From: Erythrobacter sp.
GTDB taxonomy: Bacteria; Pseudomonadota; Alphaproteobacteria; Sphingomonadales; Sphingomonadaceae
Assembly (NCBI GenBank): GCA_013822695.1
Contig: PNKW01000005.1
Coordinates: 1,863-65,862, forward strand
Reading direction: 5' to 3'
Length of the DNA stretch: 64,000 nt
The notes beneath the pieces were generated by a model. It saw nothing but the letters and a program-made list of their open reading frames with translations, was not told the DNA's origin and did no database searches. Below, in pieces: positions 5,309-47,596 of the stretch. Numbering within the stretch: position 1 is the stretch's first letter; the number at the start of each line of letters is the position of its first letter. The position numbers and the translations under genes were made by a program.

Positions 5309-6046
5309 ATGGCGACCAAGGATCAGCCCAAGCCGCTGATGCCGCATGCCACCGCGACCTGGCTGGTGGACAACACCGCGCTGTCCTTTGAACAGATCGC
5401 CGAGTTTTGCGGCCTCCACATCCTCGAAGTGCAGGCGATGGCCGATGACCTTGCGGGCAGCAAGTACACCGGGCGTGATCCGGTGCATTCGGGCGAACTG
5501 ACGCAAGGCGAGATCGAGCTCGGGCAGAACGACCCGACCTATTCGCTCAAGATGCACAAGGCGCCGGTCGAGGTGACCCGCACCAAGGGCCCGCGCTACA
5601 CCCCCGTCTCGAAGCGGCAGGACAAGCCCGACGGCATCGCCTGGATCCTGCGCAACCACCCCGAGGTGTCGGATGCGCAGATCTCCAAGCTGATCGGCAC
5701 CACCCGCAACACCATCGGCGCGCTGCGCGACCGCACGCACTGGAACATCCAGAACATCCAGCCCAAGGACCCGGTGACGCTCGGCCTGTGCTCGCAGCGC
5801 GAGCTTGACGCGATGGTCGCCAAGGCGGCCAAGCGCGCCGGTATCACCGAGGATGCGGATGCTCCGGTCAGGGCCGAGCGCAACGACCGCGAGAAGCTGA
5901 TCGAGGAACTGCGCGCCGAACGCGATGCCCAGACCAAAGCCGCTGCCCAGGCCGCGCAGGAGGCCGAGGCCGAAGCCTGGCTCGCCGCCCGCCGCGCTGC
6001 CGAGGCCGAGGAGCAGAAGATCGACCCCGAGAGCGGGTTTATTTGA
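5309..6046 (+). CDS. DUF1013 family protein
   Basis: PLMPHATATWLVDNTALSFEQIAEFCGLHILEVQ and YTPVSKRQDKPDGIAWI. Confidence 0.9.
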   Translation: MATKDQPKPLMPHATATWLVDNTALSFEQIAEFCGLHILEVQAMADDLAGSKYTGRDPVHSGELTQGEIELGQNDPTYSLKMHKAPVEVTRTKGPRYTPVSKRQDKPDGIAWILRNHPEVSDAQISKLIGTTRNTIGALRDRTHWNIQNIQPKDPVTLGLCSQRELDAMVAKAAKRAGITEDADAPVRAERNDREKLIEELRAERDAQTKAAAQAAQEAEAEAWLAARRAAEAEEQKIDPESGFI

Positions 6047-6074: not shown

Positions 6075-6163
6075 CGTCGTCCCGTGCTTGACACGGGGTT
6101 TGGCCATCTTCGGTTTCGCGACCTGAAGAAGAAGCCGAGCCCCGGATCAAGTACGGGGTGACG
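6075..6163. repeat. Palindromic repeat family A, degenerate intergenic copy
   Basis: cgtcgtcccgtgcttgacacgggg...cccggatcaagtacggggtgacg. Two hairpin arms in inverted orientation, 89 bp, same architecture as 46065-46152. Confidence 0.75.
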
Positions 6164-40487: not shown

Positions 40488-40706
40488 TTCACGCAGAGAC
40501 CGCAGAGGAGCAGAGGGCGCGGAGAACACTACGCGGCTTTGCCGCGGATTGGTTCACACAAAGAAACAAAGACACAAAGAGGGCGCACACGGCCGCGAGG
40601 GAGTGACTACCTCTTTGTGTCTTTGTGCCTTTGTGTGGGGAAATCAGTGGGCCGCTGCGCGGCAAATACCTCGGCGATCTCTGCTCCTCTGCGGTCTCTG
40701 CGTGAA
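40488..40706. repeat. Nested palindromic element family D, full copy (MITE/REPIN-like)
   Basis: Perfect 28-bp terminal IR ttcacgcagagaccgcagaggagcagag enclosing a second IR cacacaaagaaacaaagacacaaagag / ctctttgtgtctttgtgcctttgtgtg. Confidence 0.9.
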
Positions 40707-43560: not shown

Positions 43561-44089
43561 CTTGGGCTTCTCCACGGGGGCTCTCCCCGGTTGCAGTGTC
43601 GCCCTTGTCGCGCACCAGCAGGCTGCGCGCAAGGATGATGACGACGCCGATGGTGATCGCGGCGTCGGCGATGTTGAAGATCAGGAAGGGGCGGAAGGTC
43701 CCGATATGGAGGTCGGCATAGTCGATCACGTAGCCCAGCTCATACCGGTCACGGATGTTGCCGAGCGCCCCGCCGAGGATCAGCGCGAGCCCGGCGATCT
43801 CGCCCAGCAGCCGCTCGCGCATCATCCACACCAGCACCACGCCCGCAATCAGCGCGGTGACCAGCACCAGCAGCCAGCGGGTCTCCATGCTGCTCGCCTC
43901 GAACATGCCGAGCGAGACGCCGCGGTTCTCGGTATAGGTAAGGTCGAAGAAAGGCAGCAGGTCGATATGCAGCACCTGCCGCAGCTTCAATGGCCCGATC
44001 ACGTACCACTTCACCGCCTGGTCGAGAATCGTGACCAGCGCCGCGATGGCGAGGCCGATCAGCCGGTTGCGGGTGAACAGCGTGCTCAT
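43553..44089 (-). CDS. lspA: Lipoprotein signal peptidase
   Basis: NRGVSLG, GGALGNIRDR and FNIADAAIT. Confidence 0.95.
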   Translation of the reverse strand: MSTLFTRNRLIGLAIAALVTILDQAVKWYVIGPLKLRQVLHIDLLPFFDLTYTENRGVSLGMFEASSMETRWLLVLVTALIAGVVLVWMMRERLLGEIAGLALILGGALGNIRDRYELGYVIDYADLHIGTFRPFLIFNIADAAITIGVVIILARSLLVRDKGDTATGESPRGEAQDA

Positions 44090-47000
44090 GAACCGACAAC
44101 CGCATCGCAACGAGAGCACAACGCGCCGTCTTCGGCGACGTCAGGCAGCAGGCGCCAGCAGCGGCCGCACTTGTGGTGGGAGGTCTTGGAGACGATCACG
44201 TGAGTTACCTCGGGCACGGCATCGTCAGTAAAGCCGCTAACCTGAACGCTAGCTGCAATGGCGATCTCGGCCATGTCGACGGAATTCGCTCGTTCAACAA
44301 GCAAAGCGTCCTTAGTTCTGATAACTACTTCAGCTTCAAGGCTGGACCGGATCGTCTTGTCGCCCCGCAAAGGCTCGATCGCCTCGTTGATCTCGTCTCG
44401 AAGTTCGCGAATGTGCGACCACTTGCGGACCAGCTCATCGTTCTCAACCGTCGGCACGCTCGGCCATTCGAGCAGGTGGACAGAGCCGCGCTGGCCCGCG
44501 TCATCCTCCTCGCCATCTTCGGGATAGCGGCTGAGCCACACTTCCTCCGCCGTGAACACCAGCACCGGCGCGGCGTAGCGCACGAGCGCGTGGAACAGCA
44601 GGTCGAGCACGGTGCGATAGGCGTTGCGCGTGGTCGAATCCGGCCCGTCGCAATAGAGCGAATCCTTGCGGATATCGAAGAAGAAGGCGCTGAGGTCCTC
44701 GTTGCAGAAGTCCACCAGCAGGCGGGTGTAGGTGTTGAAGTCATAGGCCTCAGCCGCCGCCTTCAGCTTCCCGTCGAGCTCGGACAGCAGTCCGAGGATA
44801 TAGACCTCGAGCTCAGGCAGCTCGCCCGCATCGCTCATGTCGCCCACGAACCCATCGAGCGCGCCGAGCAGGTAACGGAAGGTGTTGCGCAGCTTGCGAT
44901 ACTGGTCGCCCACCCCTTTGAGGATTTCATCGCCGATCCGGTGATCCTCAGTGAAATCGACCGAGAGCGCCCACAGCCGGATGATATCCGCGCCGTAGGT
45001 TTCCATCACCTTCAGCGGATCGACCGTGTTGCCGAGGCTCTTCGACATCTTCTTGCCCTTGGCATCCATGGTGAAGCCGTGGGTCAGGACCTGGTCGTAA
45101 GGCGCGCGGCCGCGGGTGGCGGCCGATTGCAGCAGCGAGGACTGGAACCAGCCGCGATGCTGGTCCGATCCTTCGAGATAGAGGTTGGCGGGCCATGAGA
45201 GGTCCGGCCAGCGCCCCGACTCCAGCACGAAAGCATGGGTGCAGCCCGAATCGAACCACACGTCGAGAATGTCGGTGACCATGTCGAATTCGGCGGGGTC
45301 GTAGTCCGGGCCGAGGAACGCTGCCTTGTTGGCGCTGTTCCACGCGTCCATGCCGTCCGCGTTCACCGCCGCGACGATGCGGGCGTTGACTTCCGCGTCC
45401 TGAAGGTAGGAGCCATCGGGCCGCACGAACAGCGTGATCGGCACGCCCCATGCGCGCTGGCGGCTGAGCACCCAGTCGGGCCGCCCCTCGACCATCGCGC
45501 CGATGCGGTTGCGGCCCTTTTCGGGGATGAACTGCACCCGCGCGATCTCGGCTGTGGCGCGCTCGCGCAGGGTCGAGTGGTCGTAGCTGACGAAAGGCGC
45601 GATCGCCCCGCCGAACGGGCCGGTGGGCACGACTTCGAAATCGCCGGTGTCGAGCGGCTTGTCCATCGGCACGAACCACTGCGGGGTACACCGAAAAATC
45701 ACCTTGGCCTTGGAGCGCCACGAATGCGGGTAGGAGTGCGCGTAGTCCGCGCTCGCGGCGAGCAGCGCGCCCGCTTCGCGCAGGTCCGAACAGATCGGGC
45801 CCTCGGGCGCGTTGAATTTCGGGTTGATGACGCTCATGCGGCGCTCGTCGGCAGCGCCGAGCCATGGCCAGTCGTCGCGGTAGCGGCCGTCATCCATCAC
45901 CGCGAAGACGGGGTTGATGCCTGCCGATTTGCACAGCTCGAAGTCGTCCTCGCCATGATCGGGCGCCATGTGGACGAGGCCGGTGCCGCTATCGGTGGTG
46001 ACGAAGTCGCCGGGGAGGAGGGGGCGGAGCTTTTCGTAGAAGGAGAGTGCCTTCCCCCAATTATCGTCTCCCCGGACTTGATCCGGGGCCCCGCTTTCTT
46101 CTCCCGCGCAGTCAGAAGGCAGCGGGGCCCCGGCTCGGAGGCCGGGGAGACGGGATTTCAAAAGGTTGTAGATTGGGTGGCGGGCGAGGGTGCCGGCGAG
46201 GTCTGCGCCTCTGAAAACGGCGTGAGCGTACCCCGCTTCCGAAGGCTCTTGCCTCCTTTCGGAGTTGGGAACCTCATTCCTCTTCAGATGAATGAGTTCA
46301 AGCCGACCCGCGTCCGCGCCATACTCAAGTTGGATGGCTGCCAACTGGCTTTGCAGTCGATTTTCGACAGACTCCCACAAATCTTTGGCAATCAACAGAG
46401 GTTGCTTGGCCCAGGGAAAGGCTTGCAACACGGCATGGCGATCATTCTCGCCAAATGCCGGCGAATTGAGGACGTTGATGCTGGCTAGATACAGGCCGTA
46501 CTCAACCTCCGGCCCATAGGCCAAAGCCTGGTTCACCGGGATCGTCCAAGGCGTCGTCGTCCAGATCACCGCGTGCGCGCCGACCAACTCCGGGATCGGC
46601 GATTCCACAATCTCGAAGGCCACGTCGATCTGGGTCGAGGTGATATCCTCGTATTCGACCTCGGCTTCGGCCAGCGCGGTCTGTTCGACGGGGGACCACA
46701 TCACCGGCTTCGAGCCGCGATAGAGGTTCCCCGCCTCGGCCAGCTTCAAGAGCTCGGCGACGATCACCGCCTCGCTCTCCTTCTGCATGGTGAGGTAGGG
46801 GTGGTCCCAATCGGCCATGATGCCGAGGCGCTTCAGCTGCGAGCGCTGCACGTCGACCCAGTGCTGGGCATAGGCGCGGCACTCGTCACGGAAGGCCTTG
46901 ACCGCCGCCTCGTCACGCCCTGCGCCGGTGAGGACGGGCTTGGCCTTCTTGTCCTTGCGGTACTGCTCCTCGACCTTCCATTCGATGGGGAGGCCATGGC

Positions 47001-47307
47001 AGTCCCAGCCGGGCACGTAAGGCGCATCGCGGCCCAGCAGGTTCTGGGTGCGGCACACCATGTCCTTGAGGATGTGGTTCAGCGCATGGCCGATATGCAT
47101 GTCGCCATTGGCGTAGGGCGGGCCATCGTGGAGGATGAACTTCTCGCGCCCCCGGCGTGCGGCGCGCAGCGCGTCATACAGCCCGATCTGCTCCCAACGC
47201 GCGGCAATGCCCGGCTCCTTCTGGGGGAGGCCGGCCTTCATGGGGAAATCGGTCTTCGGCAGGAAGACGGAGTCCCGGTAATCGCGCTGCGAGGTCTCTT
47301 CGGTCAT
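44086..47307 (-). CDS. ileS: Isoleucine--tRNA ligase (type 1), enlarged to 1073 aa
   Basis: HDGPPYANGDMHIGH, TTTPWT, GTGLVH, EGSDQHRGWF, KMSKS and C-terminal CGRCW..CSRC Zn site. Confidence 0.97.
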   Translation of the reverse strand: MTEETSQRDYRDSVFLPKTDFPMKAGLPQKEPGIAARWEQIGLYDALRAARRGREKFILHDGPPYANGDMHIGHALNHILKDMVCRTQNLLGRDAPYVPGWDCHGLPIEWKVEEQYRKDKKAKPVLTGAGRDEAAVKAFRDECRAYAQHWVDVQRSQLKRLGIMADWDHPYLTMQKESEAVIVAELLKLAEAGNLYRGSKPVMWSPVEQTALAEAEVEYEDITSTQIDVAFEIVESPIPELVGAHAVIWTTTPWTIPVNQALAYGPEVEYGLYLASINVLNSPAFGENDRHAVLQAFPWAKQPLLIAKDLWESVENRLQSQLAAIQLEYGADAGRLELIHLKRNEVPNSERRQEPSEAGYAHAVFRGADLAGTLARHPIYNLLKSRLPGLRAGAPLPSDCAGEESGAPDQVRGDDNWGKALSFYEKLRPLLPGDFVTTDSGTGLVHMAPDHGEDDFELCKSAGINPVFAVMDDGRYRDDWPWLGAADERRMSVINPKFNAPEGPICSDLREAGALLAASADYAHSYPHSWRSKAKVIFRCTPQWFVPMDKPLDTGDFEVVPTGPFGGAIAPFVSYDHSTLRERATAEIARVQFIPEKGRNRIGAMVEGRPDWVLSRQRAWGVPITLFVRPDGSYLQDAEVNARIVAAVNADGMDAWNSANKAAFLGPDYDPAEFDMVTDILDVWFDSGCTHAFVLESGRWPDLSWPANLYLEGSDQHRGWFQSSLLQSAATRGRAPYDQVLTHGFTMDAKGKKMSKSLGNTVDPLKVMETYGADIIRLWALSVDFTEDHRIGDEILKGVGDQYRKLRNTFRYLLGALDGFVGDMSDAGELPELEVYILGLLSELDGKLKAAAEAYDFNTYTRLLVDFCNEDLSAFFFDIRKDSLYCDGPDSTTRNAYRTVLDLLFHALVRYAAPVLVFTAEEVWLSRYPEDGEEDDAGQRGSVHLLEWPSVPTVENDELVRKWSHIRELRDEINEAIEPLRGDKTIRSSLEAEVVIRTKDALLVERANSVDMAEIAIAASVQVSGFTDDAVPEVTHVIVSKTSHHKCGRCWRLLPDVAEDGALCSRCDAVVGS
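46065..46152. repeat. Palindromic repeat family A inserted in frame in ileS
   Basis: cgtctccccgg-acttgat-ccggggccccgct ... agcggggccccgg-ctcggagg-ccggggagacg; translates on the minus strand as SRLPGLRAGAPL..SGAPDQVRGDD. Confidence 0.88.
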
Positions 47308-47362
47308 CGTGCGCGGGGCCTTAGCGGGCGGGCGGGCTTTGCGCAATTTGTCTTGGGGGATA

Positions 47363-47596
47363 GGGTTCACGCAGAGACCGCAGAGGAGCGGAGATCGCGG
47401 AGAAGGTTACGCGGCACAGCCGCGGGTATGCTCACACAAAGGCACAAAGCCACAAAGATGATGCACTTCGCAGCGGCCGGGTGCCCGCTCTTTGTGCCTT
47501 TGTGTCTTTGTGTGCGAACAATGTGAAAGCCGCTGACGCGGCGGGGGAGCAGTCCCTCCGCGCCCTCTGCTCCTCTGCGGCCTCTGCGAGAAACCC
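47363..47596. repeat. Family D element, full copy between ribF and ileS
   Basis: gggttcacgcagagaccgcagaggagcggag ... ctctgctcctctgcggcctctgcgagaaaccc with inner cacacaaaggcacaaagccacaaag IR. Confidence 0.9.

Follow-up and report, generated by a model that had tools for sequence, protein, structure and literature searches.

A CGTC-tagged REP dimer in frame in the CP1 loop of an Erythrobacter isoleucyl-tRNA synthetase gene

Repetitive extragenic palindromes (REPs) of prokaryotes fall into two superfamilies, GTAG-tagged and CGTC-tagged, according to the passages on classification in Di Nocera, De Gregorio, Rocco 2013 (BMC Genomics 14:522, PMC3733652). These passages describe CGTC-tagged REPs as commonest in Alphaproteobacteria, including Erythrobacter litoralis, Sphingopyxis alaskensis, Sphingomonas wittichii, and Novosphingobium, and as occurring mostly in inverted dimers, with TGTC and CCTC as variants of the tag and apparently without a dedicated transposase. 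They also equate RPE-6 and RPE-4, two Rickettsia palindromic elements (RPEs) of Rickettsia conorii, with CGTC-1 and CGTC-4, and state that intragenic dimers encode 20-30 amino acids (aa) within housekeeping genes. For E. litoralis HTCC2594, Additional file 3 of that paper includes an intragenic CGTC-1 dimer in isoleucyl-tRNA synthetase (IleRS; ELI_13550, residues 467-488, VTPAEAGVSPGHEQIPASAGMT); further in-frame CGTC-1 dimers of this species lie in GlyRS-beta, TruB (RHPREGGDP..LDPRLRGG), DnaE2 (RHPGLDPGS..), and RsmE (PMC3733652). Here we describe an inverted dimer of CGTC-tagged REPs within ileS, the IleRS gene, on a 64,000-nucleotide stretch of Erythrobacter sp. DNA (assembly GCA_013822695.1, contig PNKW01000005.1, positions 1,863 to 65,862), referred to below as the window. 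With a probability that we put at about 85%, a CGTC REP inverted dimer inserted into the DNA for a loop of the CP1 editing domain, is translated and tolerated, and the old allele has been exchanged by recombination.

The ileS gene is on the minus strand (Table 1). Its likely true start is MTEETSQ at 47307, which would give a 1073-aa protein, and residue numbers in the structure model below are those of this protein. The product belongs to the type-1 bacterial IleRS enzymes by its Pfam domains, its invariant motif columns, and its match to the solved structures 8c9f, 8wng, and 1qu2. It is the single full-length IleRS match in the assembly; the remaining class-I matches are paralogues with 22-38% identity, and no second IleRS gene was found in the assembly (3.16 Mb, 156 contigs). 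The CP1 pattern GTG.VH..P.HG..D, which we take from established IleRS biochemistry to be the editing motif, is present. Among 105 IleRS sequences, G441-T442-G443, V445-H446, P449, H451-G452, and D455 are invariant, L444, E453, and D454 are nearly so (≥90%), and M447, A448, and D450 vary.

A preliminary description, made from the window alone, had reported an 88-bp inverted repeat forming a double hairpin and translated in frame in CP1, as part of a 49-aa segment after RHP. Both points held: the segment is exactly 49 aa in the 1094-aa open reading frame (ORF), and pairing and folding agree with the described form. The element runs from CGTC at 46065-46068 on the plus strand to the inverted counterpart GACG at 46149-46152. 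The outer arms, CGTCTCCCCGG and CCGGGGAGACG, pair at 11 of 11 positions and the inner arms at 13 of 13, with more pairs toward the centre. As RNA the hairpin folds at -67.7 kcal/mol (z = -5.3) and as DNA at -38.5 kcal/mol (z = -7.0); none of 200 shuffles folded as stably. Each end also folds alone as a small hairpin (CCCCGGA-cttga-TCCGGGG). Several traits of the CGTC superfamily are present, namely the CGTC tag, multiple, dispersed, and mainly intergenic copies, inverted dimers, and no REP-associated tyrosine transposase (RAYT). We conclude that the ileS element is an inverted dimer of CGTC-tagged REPs. The E. litoralis DnaE2 peptide RHPGLDPGS, classed as CGTC-1 in the catalogue passages cited above, would imply a near-identical core, CGTC-A-CCCCGGACTTGATCCCGGG.

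The element belongs to a dispersed family of this genome. BLAST, a fuzzy motif search, and four iterated nhmmer rounds over the whole genome gave 23 loci on 18 contigs, 13 of full length and about 10 consisting of single arms, with the family core CCCGGRCTTGAYCCGGG followed by CCCMGCTKYCTT, a variable centre, and the inverted arm. Thirty-two nt of the ileS copy (query residues 10-41, including REP monomer 1) match the intergenic copy at C30:28550-28581 with 100% identity, the 19-nt core of REP monomer 1 recurs without mismatch at six other loci, and the nearest intergenic copy sharing the loop variant of REP monomer 2 is at C73:1209-1290. The intergenic sibling that had been noticed at 6075 proved to be a member of the same family by nhmmer, and it lies between an ORF ending at 6046 and another starting at about 6174. 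CGTC heads are found at about 15 other copies. Just outside the CGTC heads of several intergenic copies a CCCCC-WWWW motif recurs (in ileS, CCCCCAATTA), and the element therefore probably continues past the hairpin for some 10 nt on the same side.

The ileS copy is the only family member within a convincing gene, that is, one with a spanning ORF and high third-position GC on both sides. Neither a scan for CGTC...GACG hairpins nor a six-frame search of the genome with 16 REP-type peptide motifs gave another copy in a convincing gene, leaving ileS as the sole real-gene case; the few hairpins that the scan did place within genes are not members of the ileS repeat family. The Y1/RAYT transposase family PF01797 had no match in the assembly, which is 100% complete, and the control genomes matched. 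As a candidate parent element we considered C9:12731-13887, where two inverted REP heads stand 1.1 kb apart, and rejected it: the heads frame an ordinary lipoprotein-like (signal-peptide) gene, and no transposase or nuclease was found between them. This lipoprotein-like gene has a 77%-identical copy at C24:553-1264, which also adjoins a REP.

Alignment of orthologues defined the empty site. The loop is 11 aa long in 15 of 15 same-genus orthologues and 7-12 aa in 12 same-order orthologues, against 49 aa in the ileS product; no equally long loop occurred among these 27 sequences, and the length of roughly 10 aa given for typical homologs in the preliminary description was right. In the metagenome relative L031 the empty allele reads CAC CCG ATG CAC CAC CTC GGG GGG TTC TAC. 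By codon alignment, the 6 nt GGGGGG (encoding GG) correspond to 120 nt in the filled allele, a net gain of 114 nt or 38 codons. We found no target-site duplication, as no direct repeat is shared between ...TTGAAATCC|CGTC on one side and GACG|ATAATTGGG... on the other (coding strand), and the element thus lacks the combination of terminal inverted repeats and target-site duplication. What it shares with RPEs is an in-frame insert that yields a peptide which the orthologues lack.

The reality of the insert was examined in independent DNA and RNA contigs. In run X1 one contig covers 45800-46400 with zero differences. In three unrelated drinking-water/wastewater metagenomes, unitigs break only in the repeated interval 46064-46100, in which depth is raised 5- to 50-fold; overlapping unitigs span the two junctions, again with no difference. 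Counting all runs, four of DNA, from different studies, and four of RNA cover the two junctions without a mismatch. A repeat-induced chimaera of the assembly, to which the breaking of De Bruijn unitigs in the repeated terminal 37 nt would lend some colour, is hard to square with this coverage or with the same cassette in independently assembled relatives, and we give it next to no weight; the artefact that the preliminary description had allowed for is thus not borne out.

In metatranscriptomes, contigs with lengths of 320, 255, and 204 nt run through the insert, without any RNA joint that skips it. Among nine relatives with a palindrome at this loop, the segments are 183, 186, 201, or 204 nt long, differing by whole codons and containing zero stops, and the long hairpin is present in every filled gene. 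The hairpin is thus probably translated into protein, judging from the reading frame. A stable hairpin of this kind takes part in the bypass in phage T4 gene 60. In view of the stability of the ileS hairpin (-67.7 kcal/mol), one might imagine that it is skipped, by ribosomal bypassing or RNA removal, so that the protein loop is of normal length. This seems very improbable: every lineage keeps the insert as an open, in-frame stretch whose length changes by whole codons only, the RNA contigs carry it without a joint, and there is no stop codon after a take-off site.

The structure of the protein was predicted with AlphaFold. A first run with 19 close sequences gave a mean predicted local distance difference test (pLDDT) of 53.5 and was unusable. 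With 105 sequences, mean pLDDT was 83.8 and the predicted TM-score (pTM) 0.80, and the model matched a solved type-1 IleRS (8c9f) with a target-normalised TM-score of 0.88. In this model IYNLLKS forms a helix at 378-385, residues 386-408 are coil, and the next helix spans 415-425. The pLDDT falls below 50 at residues 389-405, within the insert, and the 10-residue blocks on either side reach 94-95, so the insert would fit a flexible excursion from a well-folded CP1 domain. We infer that it is neutral for editing. Further stretches of low confidence are 351-361, in the upstream hypervariable part, and 559-573, at the second hot spot described below. Directly upstream of the cassette, the CP1 stretch of residues 281-399 is hypervariable in both length and sequence among congeners, with 92-96% nucleotide identity to L031 only and the other congeners unalignable; where solved IleRS structures have about 50 aa, the ileS product has about 154 aa.

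A protein search restricted to IleRS residues 295-450 yielded three kinds of relative, described below; the named closest IleRS relatives in the database are from Erythrobacter, Porphyrobacter, and Qipengyuania. At least five more IleRS genes, all closely related, share the cassette, and its flanks have diverged synonymously to pS 0.4-0.5 (pS and pN being the proportions of synonymous and nonsynonymous sites that differ). The insertion is old, neither recent nor private to this genome. Cassette and surroundings have different histories: P0001 (L031) has an upstream hypervariable stretch like that of ileS, 92-96% identical, yet its site is empty, and P0002-P0006 have other upstream stretches with the same cassette as ileS. 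In P0013 and P0016 the same flanks surround a different palindrome (SRHSRAGGNP...DPRLRGGD) with the classical CGTC-1 core. More generally, REP types A, B, and C differ between lineages and the hairpin is kept in each.

Sliding-window nucleotide identity gave a mosaic along the gene. Over residues 281-400 L031 is closest (92-96%, others 29-73%); over the cassette, residues 401-440, it is L032-L035 and L039 (84-89%; the cassette is absent in L031); and over residues 561-600 it is L002 (92%, others 47-62%). On a gene tree of 662 conserved codons and 21 tips, filled and empty genes are interleaved, with the filled/empty sister pairs L035/L015 and L033/L002 at 99-100% support. A single clade of filled genes was rejected (approximately unbiased test, p-AU 2e-156); the 21 tips require no fewer than six state changes.

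We considered how such a pattern could arise. Precise excision as the source of the empty alleles was ruled out, because the sequence around the filled site, IY[ND]LLK ... KALAFY, is unlike that of the empty allele, MHHLGGFY; the pattern is explicable by homologous exchange of old alleles. Alternatively, the filled sites within the genus could have arisen separately, by repeated insertion of one REP dimer at a sequence-specific target, as might be suggested by the interleaving itself and by the fact that, across the family Sphingomonadaceae, the loop has been struck repeatedly by different REP families with different flanks. However, type-A and type-B genes share the non-palindromic flanks HPIY[ND]LLK ... 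W[EG]KAL[AS]FY, unlike the empty allele, and these shared flanks are as diverged as the remaining gene. Moreover, cassettes 281-400 and 561-600 show similar allele shuffling without any palindrome. Independent insertion thus appears distinctly unlikely, and exchange of old alleles by recombination is preferred.

Beyond the genus, the CP1 loop behaves as a hot spot. Besides this genome, at least 38 of 401 sampled Sphingomonadaceae genomes, from about 27 genera, match contiguously through the insert; the others match only downstream. We read 29 loci: 23 proved filled and one empty, and the pattern failed to parse the other five. The filled loci carry 51-81 aa in the segment, against 23 aa for the empty site, and contain hairpins of at least 70 nt and at least five kinds (Table 1), tagged CGTC..GACG or CCTC..GAGG. 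Two further sites in IleRS take up similar sequences. The first (H2) follows QWFVPMD, at 45508-45681 of the window (residues 564-621), and is the site published for E. litoralis; P0001, P0004, and P0007-P0021 have REP-type peptides there (VVPAKAGT..IPASAGMT, RPEPVEG.., PLPGGEGSGVGG..SLKGRGS). In the ileS gene of the window no recognisable palindrome was found at H2, where 25 extra residues are present and the segment is 92% identical to L002. The other site is in the C-terminal domain after LLEWP, where the REP type of the ileS dimer is translated in P0010, P0019, P0020, and P0021; in P0020 the C-terminal insert is present and the CP1 loop is empty.

Pairwise pS and pN were calculated for six type-A genes, and the whole-gene figure is based on five. 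For the 662 conserved gene codons pS was 0.32 and pN/pS 0.18. The flanks of the cassette gave pS of 0.49 and 0.40 with pN/pS of 0.09 (left flank) and 0.63, the value of 0.09 indicating purifying selection on that flank, and the inter-REP spacer gave pS 0.36 and pN/pS 0.50. In the two REP arms, pS dropped to 0.073 and 0.043 (pN/pS 0.32 and 0.70), a level of synonymous conservation 4-7 times that of the remaining gene; across 865 other 23-codon windows the minimum was 0.138 and the mean 0.37, and none came down to the values of the arms. Codons that are rare in ileS are kept in the arms, CGA, CCT, GGA, and GAT in six of six lineages and CAA and CGT in five of six. The arms are constrained as nucleotides beyond what the peptide requires, and the likeliest causes would be gene conversion from other REP copies or selection on the hairpin.

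This conservation could mean that the hairpin or the peptide has been put to use and is kept by selection, for example through a pause that aids CP1 folding, through mRNA stability or processing, or through a contact with tRNA or in editing. Consistent with such use, no synonymous sites in the gene are more conserved than those of the arms, and the cassette has lasted through a divergence of its own flanks to pS 0.4-0.5. A hairpin is also retained in every lineage whether the REP is of type A, B, or C, and the flanking segments are predicted helices of conserved sequence. However, the insert is missing from about 90% of the family and from most congeners, close sister genes differ in its presence, and very different REP families with unrelated peptides fill the loop. 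Gene conversion, in addition, would give equal synonymous conservation without function, and one arm is letter-identical to intergenic copies. We therefore regard a selected role as rather unlikely and retain the account of a tolerated insert.

We also entertain, as a tentative idea that we would not favour at present, that the ileS dimer is no fossil and still behaves as a member of the REP population of the genome. If so, the arms would be kept letter-perfect by gene conversion or hairpin selection, and the palindrome would be swapped in each lineage for the current REP type between the shared flanks. Across the family, the CP1 loop would thereby serve as a landing pad at which DNA-level repeat dynamics rewrite part of an essential proofreading enzyme, and it would offer a natural setting for tracing what moves or maintains CGTC REPs, which have no known transposase.

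Under the account that we prefer, a REP dimer would have entered DNA coding for a short CP1 turn, without target duplication, adding 38 codons and keeping the frame. The hairpin would be transcribed and translated into a Gly/Pro/Ala/Asp-rich, probably disordered loop between two short helices, which the enzyme would tolerate. Among close species, homologous recombination would have swapped the old filled allele and the empty one for each other, and presence and absence therefore do not track the gene tree. Across the family the same loop has taken up several REP types; few places in IleRS may tolerate about 40 extra residues, or a resident palindrome may attract its own replacement, or both.

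Several points weigh against parts of this account. The stems of the ileS dimer are 7 bp with loops of 5-6 nt, followed by CCCCGC, near but not equal to the stems of 8-9 bp and loops of 4-5 nt, with a short unpaired tail, that are published for CGTC units, the stem length of 8-9 bp being given for CGTC-1 to CGTC-4, and many family copies in this genome have a CCCCG head instead of CGTC. That no other copy lies in a gene was judged by a crude test of ORF and third-position GC, not by a gene caller. The tree on which filled and empty genes interleave is derived from a gene which itself recombines, and the metatranscriptome contigs may include DNA carry-over. Finally, the surface position of the insert is a putative one, suggested by low model confidence and the predicted lack of secondary structure.

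Table 1. Features of the ileS element, its gene, and related hairpins. Plain numbers are window positions; numbers after a C-label are contig positions; dots mark features given without strand.
Feature	Position	Strand	Remarks
ileS, isoleucyl-tRNA synthetase	44086-47370	minus	1094-aa ORF; Pfam tRNA-synt_1 (E = 1.8e-124) and Anticodon_1
Conserved editing-site motif	45943-45987	minus	starts 13 residues past the cassette
Net inserted cassette, LKSR...KALS	46042-46161	minus	120 nt; hairpin plus 9 nt upstream and 23 nt downstream (coding strand)
Inverted dimer of CGTC-tagged REPs	46065-46152	.	88 nt, one long hairpin; bounded by CGTC...GACG
REP monomer 1, CGTC-T-CCCCGGA-CTTGA-TCCGGGG-CCCCGC	46065-46094	plus	7-bp stem, 5-nt loop; pS 0.043
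Variable inter-REP spacer	46095-46121	.	reads (LP)SDCAGEE; pS 0.36, pN 0.18; length changes in relatives are whole codons only
REP monomer 2, inverted, CGTC-T-CCCCGGC-CTCCGA-GCCGGGG-CCCCGC (coding strand)	46122-46152	minus	7-bp stem, 6-nt loop; pS 0.073
Low-GC (51-58%) hypervariable CP1 stretch, residues 281-399	46174-46530	minus	about 120 aa; directly upstream of the cassette
Intergenic sibling, CGTCGTCCCGTGCTTGACACGGGG...CCCCGGATCAAGTACGGGGTGACG	6075-6163	plus	nhmmer score 54.1; DNA fold -27.7 kcal/mol, z = -5.5
Loop palindrome, CGTC-ATTCCCGCGAAGGCGGGAA...			reads RHSREGGNP..LDPRLRGND
Loop palindrome, same type as the ileS hairpin of this genome			
Loop palindrome, CCTC-tagged, TCCCCTTCAGGGGAGGGG...			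95 nt; reads PLPFRGGAGGG..PHPNPSPEGEGL
Loop palindrome			reads SGESRSPG..LDPGVRRGT
Loop palindrome			reads RHPSESWDRS..DPSLRWDD
Hairpin family CGTCAGGAAGCCCGCTGG...	e.g. C14:33144-33232, C11:49762-49850, C4:8030-8119		89-91 nt, at least 8 copies
Hairpin family CGTCATCCCAGCGAAAGCTGGGACC...	e.g. C30:32256-32337, C42:13683-13764		82 nt, 3 copies
Related variant of the 82-nt family, CGTCATCCCGGCGCAGGCCGGGACC...	C14:13420-13502		83 nt
Hairpin family CGTCATTGCGAG...	C1:53621-53723, C12:38718-38822		about 104 nt, 2 copies

At least three other families of CGTC...GACG hairpins are present in the genome (Table 1), none of them within a convincing gene. At 40488-40706 the window also contains a different, nested palindrome, with outer arms (TTCACGCAGAGACCGCAGAGGAGCAGAG...) of 37 nt that are 92% complementary and an inner 41-nt pair; strings related to it adjoin REP copies on C11 and C32. 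A search of Rfam returned sub-threshold matches to eukaryotic microRNAs only (at most 38 bits against gathering thresholds of 68-196), which we set aside as generic hairpin hits.

The class of element and its behaviour have been in print since 2013, and so has its occurrence in Erythrobacter aminoacyl-tRNA synthetases, as the passages and catalogue entries of PMC3733652 cited above make clear. What appears to be new is the CP1 editing-domain loop as a site and its repeated occupation by different REP families in about one-tenth of the family, as well as the way in which close species have exchanged filled and empty alleles and the strong synonymous conservation of the REP arms. The preliminary description had proposed that a repeat-to-peptide process acts in this free-living lineage; this stood as far as it concerned a palindrome in CP1 of an essential gene, but such a process is not new for the lineage, given the catalogue entries. 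The process is visible across the family and not within this genome, where ileS has the only in-gene copy found.

The locus adds a well-documented case of selfish hairpin DNA made part of an essential enzyme in free-living bacteria. A CP1 loop that accepts about 40 extra residues, encoded by several unrelated palindromes, in about one-tenth of Sphingomonadaceae species is a permissive site for protein engineering and for studies of insertion tolerance. Because filled and empty alleles recombine across species, ileS is a poor single-gene marker in this group. The synonymous freeze on the arms is a measurable signature that could separate gene conversion from selection on structure.

Among described systems, REPINs (REP doublets forming hairpins; Bertels and Rainey 2011, PMC3116915) resemble the ileS element in that two inverted REPs with a variable spacer form one long hairpin and the REPs are conserved. 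REPINs are RAYT-linked and made of GTAG-type REPs, whereas the ileS element has the CGTC tag and its genome has no Y1 transposase homologue by the search described above. The element is thus REPIN-like in form but without a RAYT, and we do not class it as a REPIN.

Rickettsia palindromic elements (Ogata et al. 2000, 2002, as cited in PMC3733652 and PMC1779305) are likewise in-frame palindromes that add extra loops, also in essential genes; the literature that we found on RPEs consisted of Rickettsia papers only. Unlike in Rickettsia, the host here is free-living and GC-rich, with a 3.2-Mb genome, and only one in-gene copy was found. The precedent of RPEs, invoked from the start for this locus, is more than an analogy, as RPE-4 and RPE-6 are placed in the same CGTC superfamily; this link is made through the statement in the passages of PMC3733652 only.

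The closest system is that of the CGTC REPs. None of the passages of PMC3733652 used here deals with one loop reused across genera, with the shuffling of filled and empty sites, or with constraint on synonymous sites. The units that they describe share with the ileS element the CGTC head, the short GC-rich stem-loop, the inverted dimer, the mostly intergenic location, and the lack of a RAYT. The published E. litoralis IleRS dimer follows QWFVPMD, at H2, whereas the ileS dimer described here occupies the CP1 loop.

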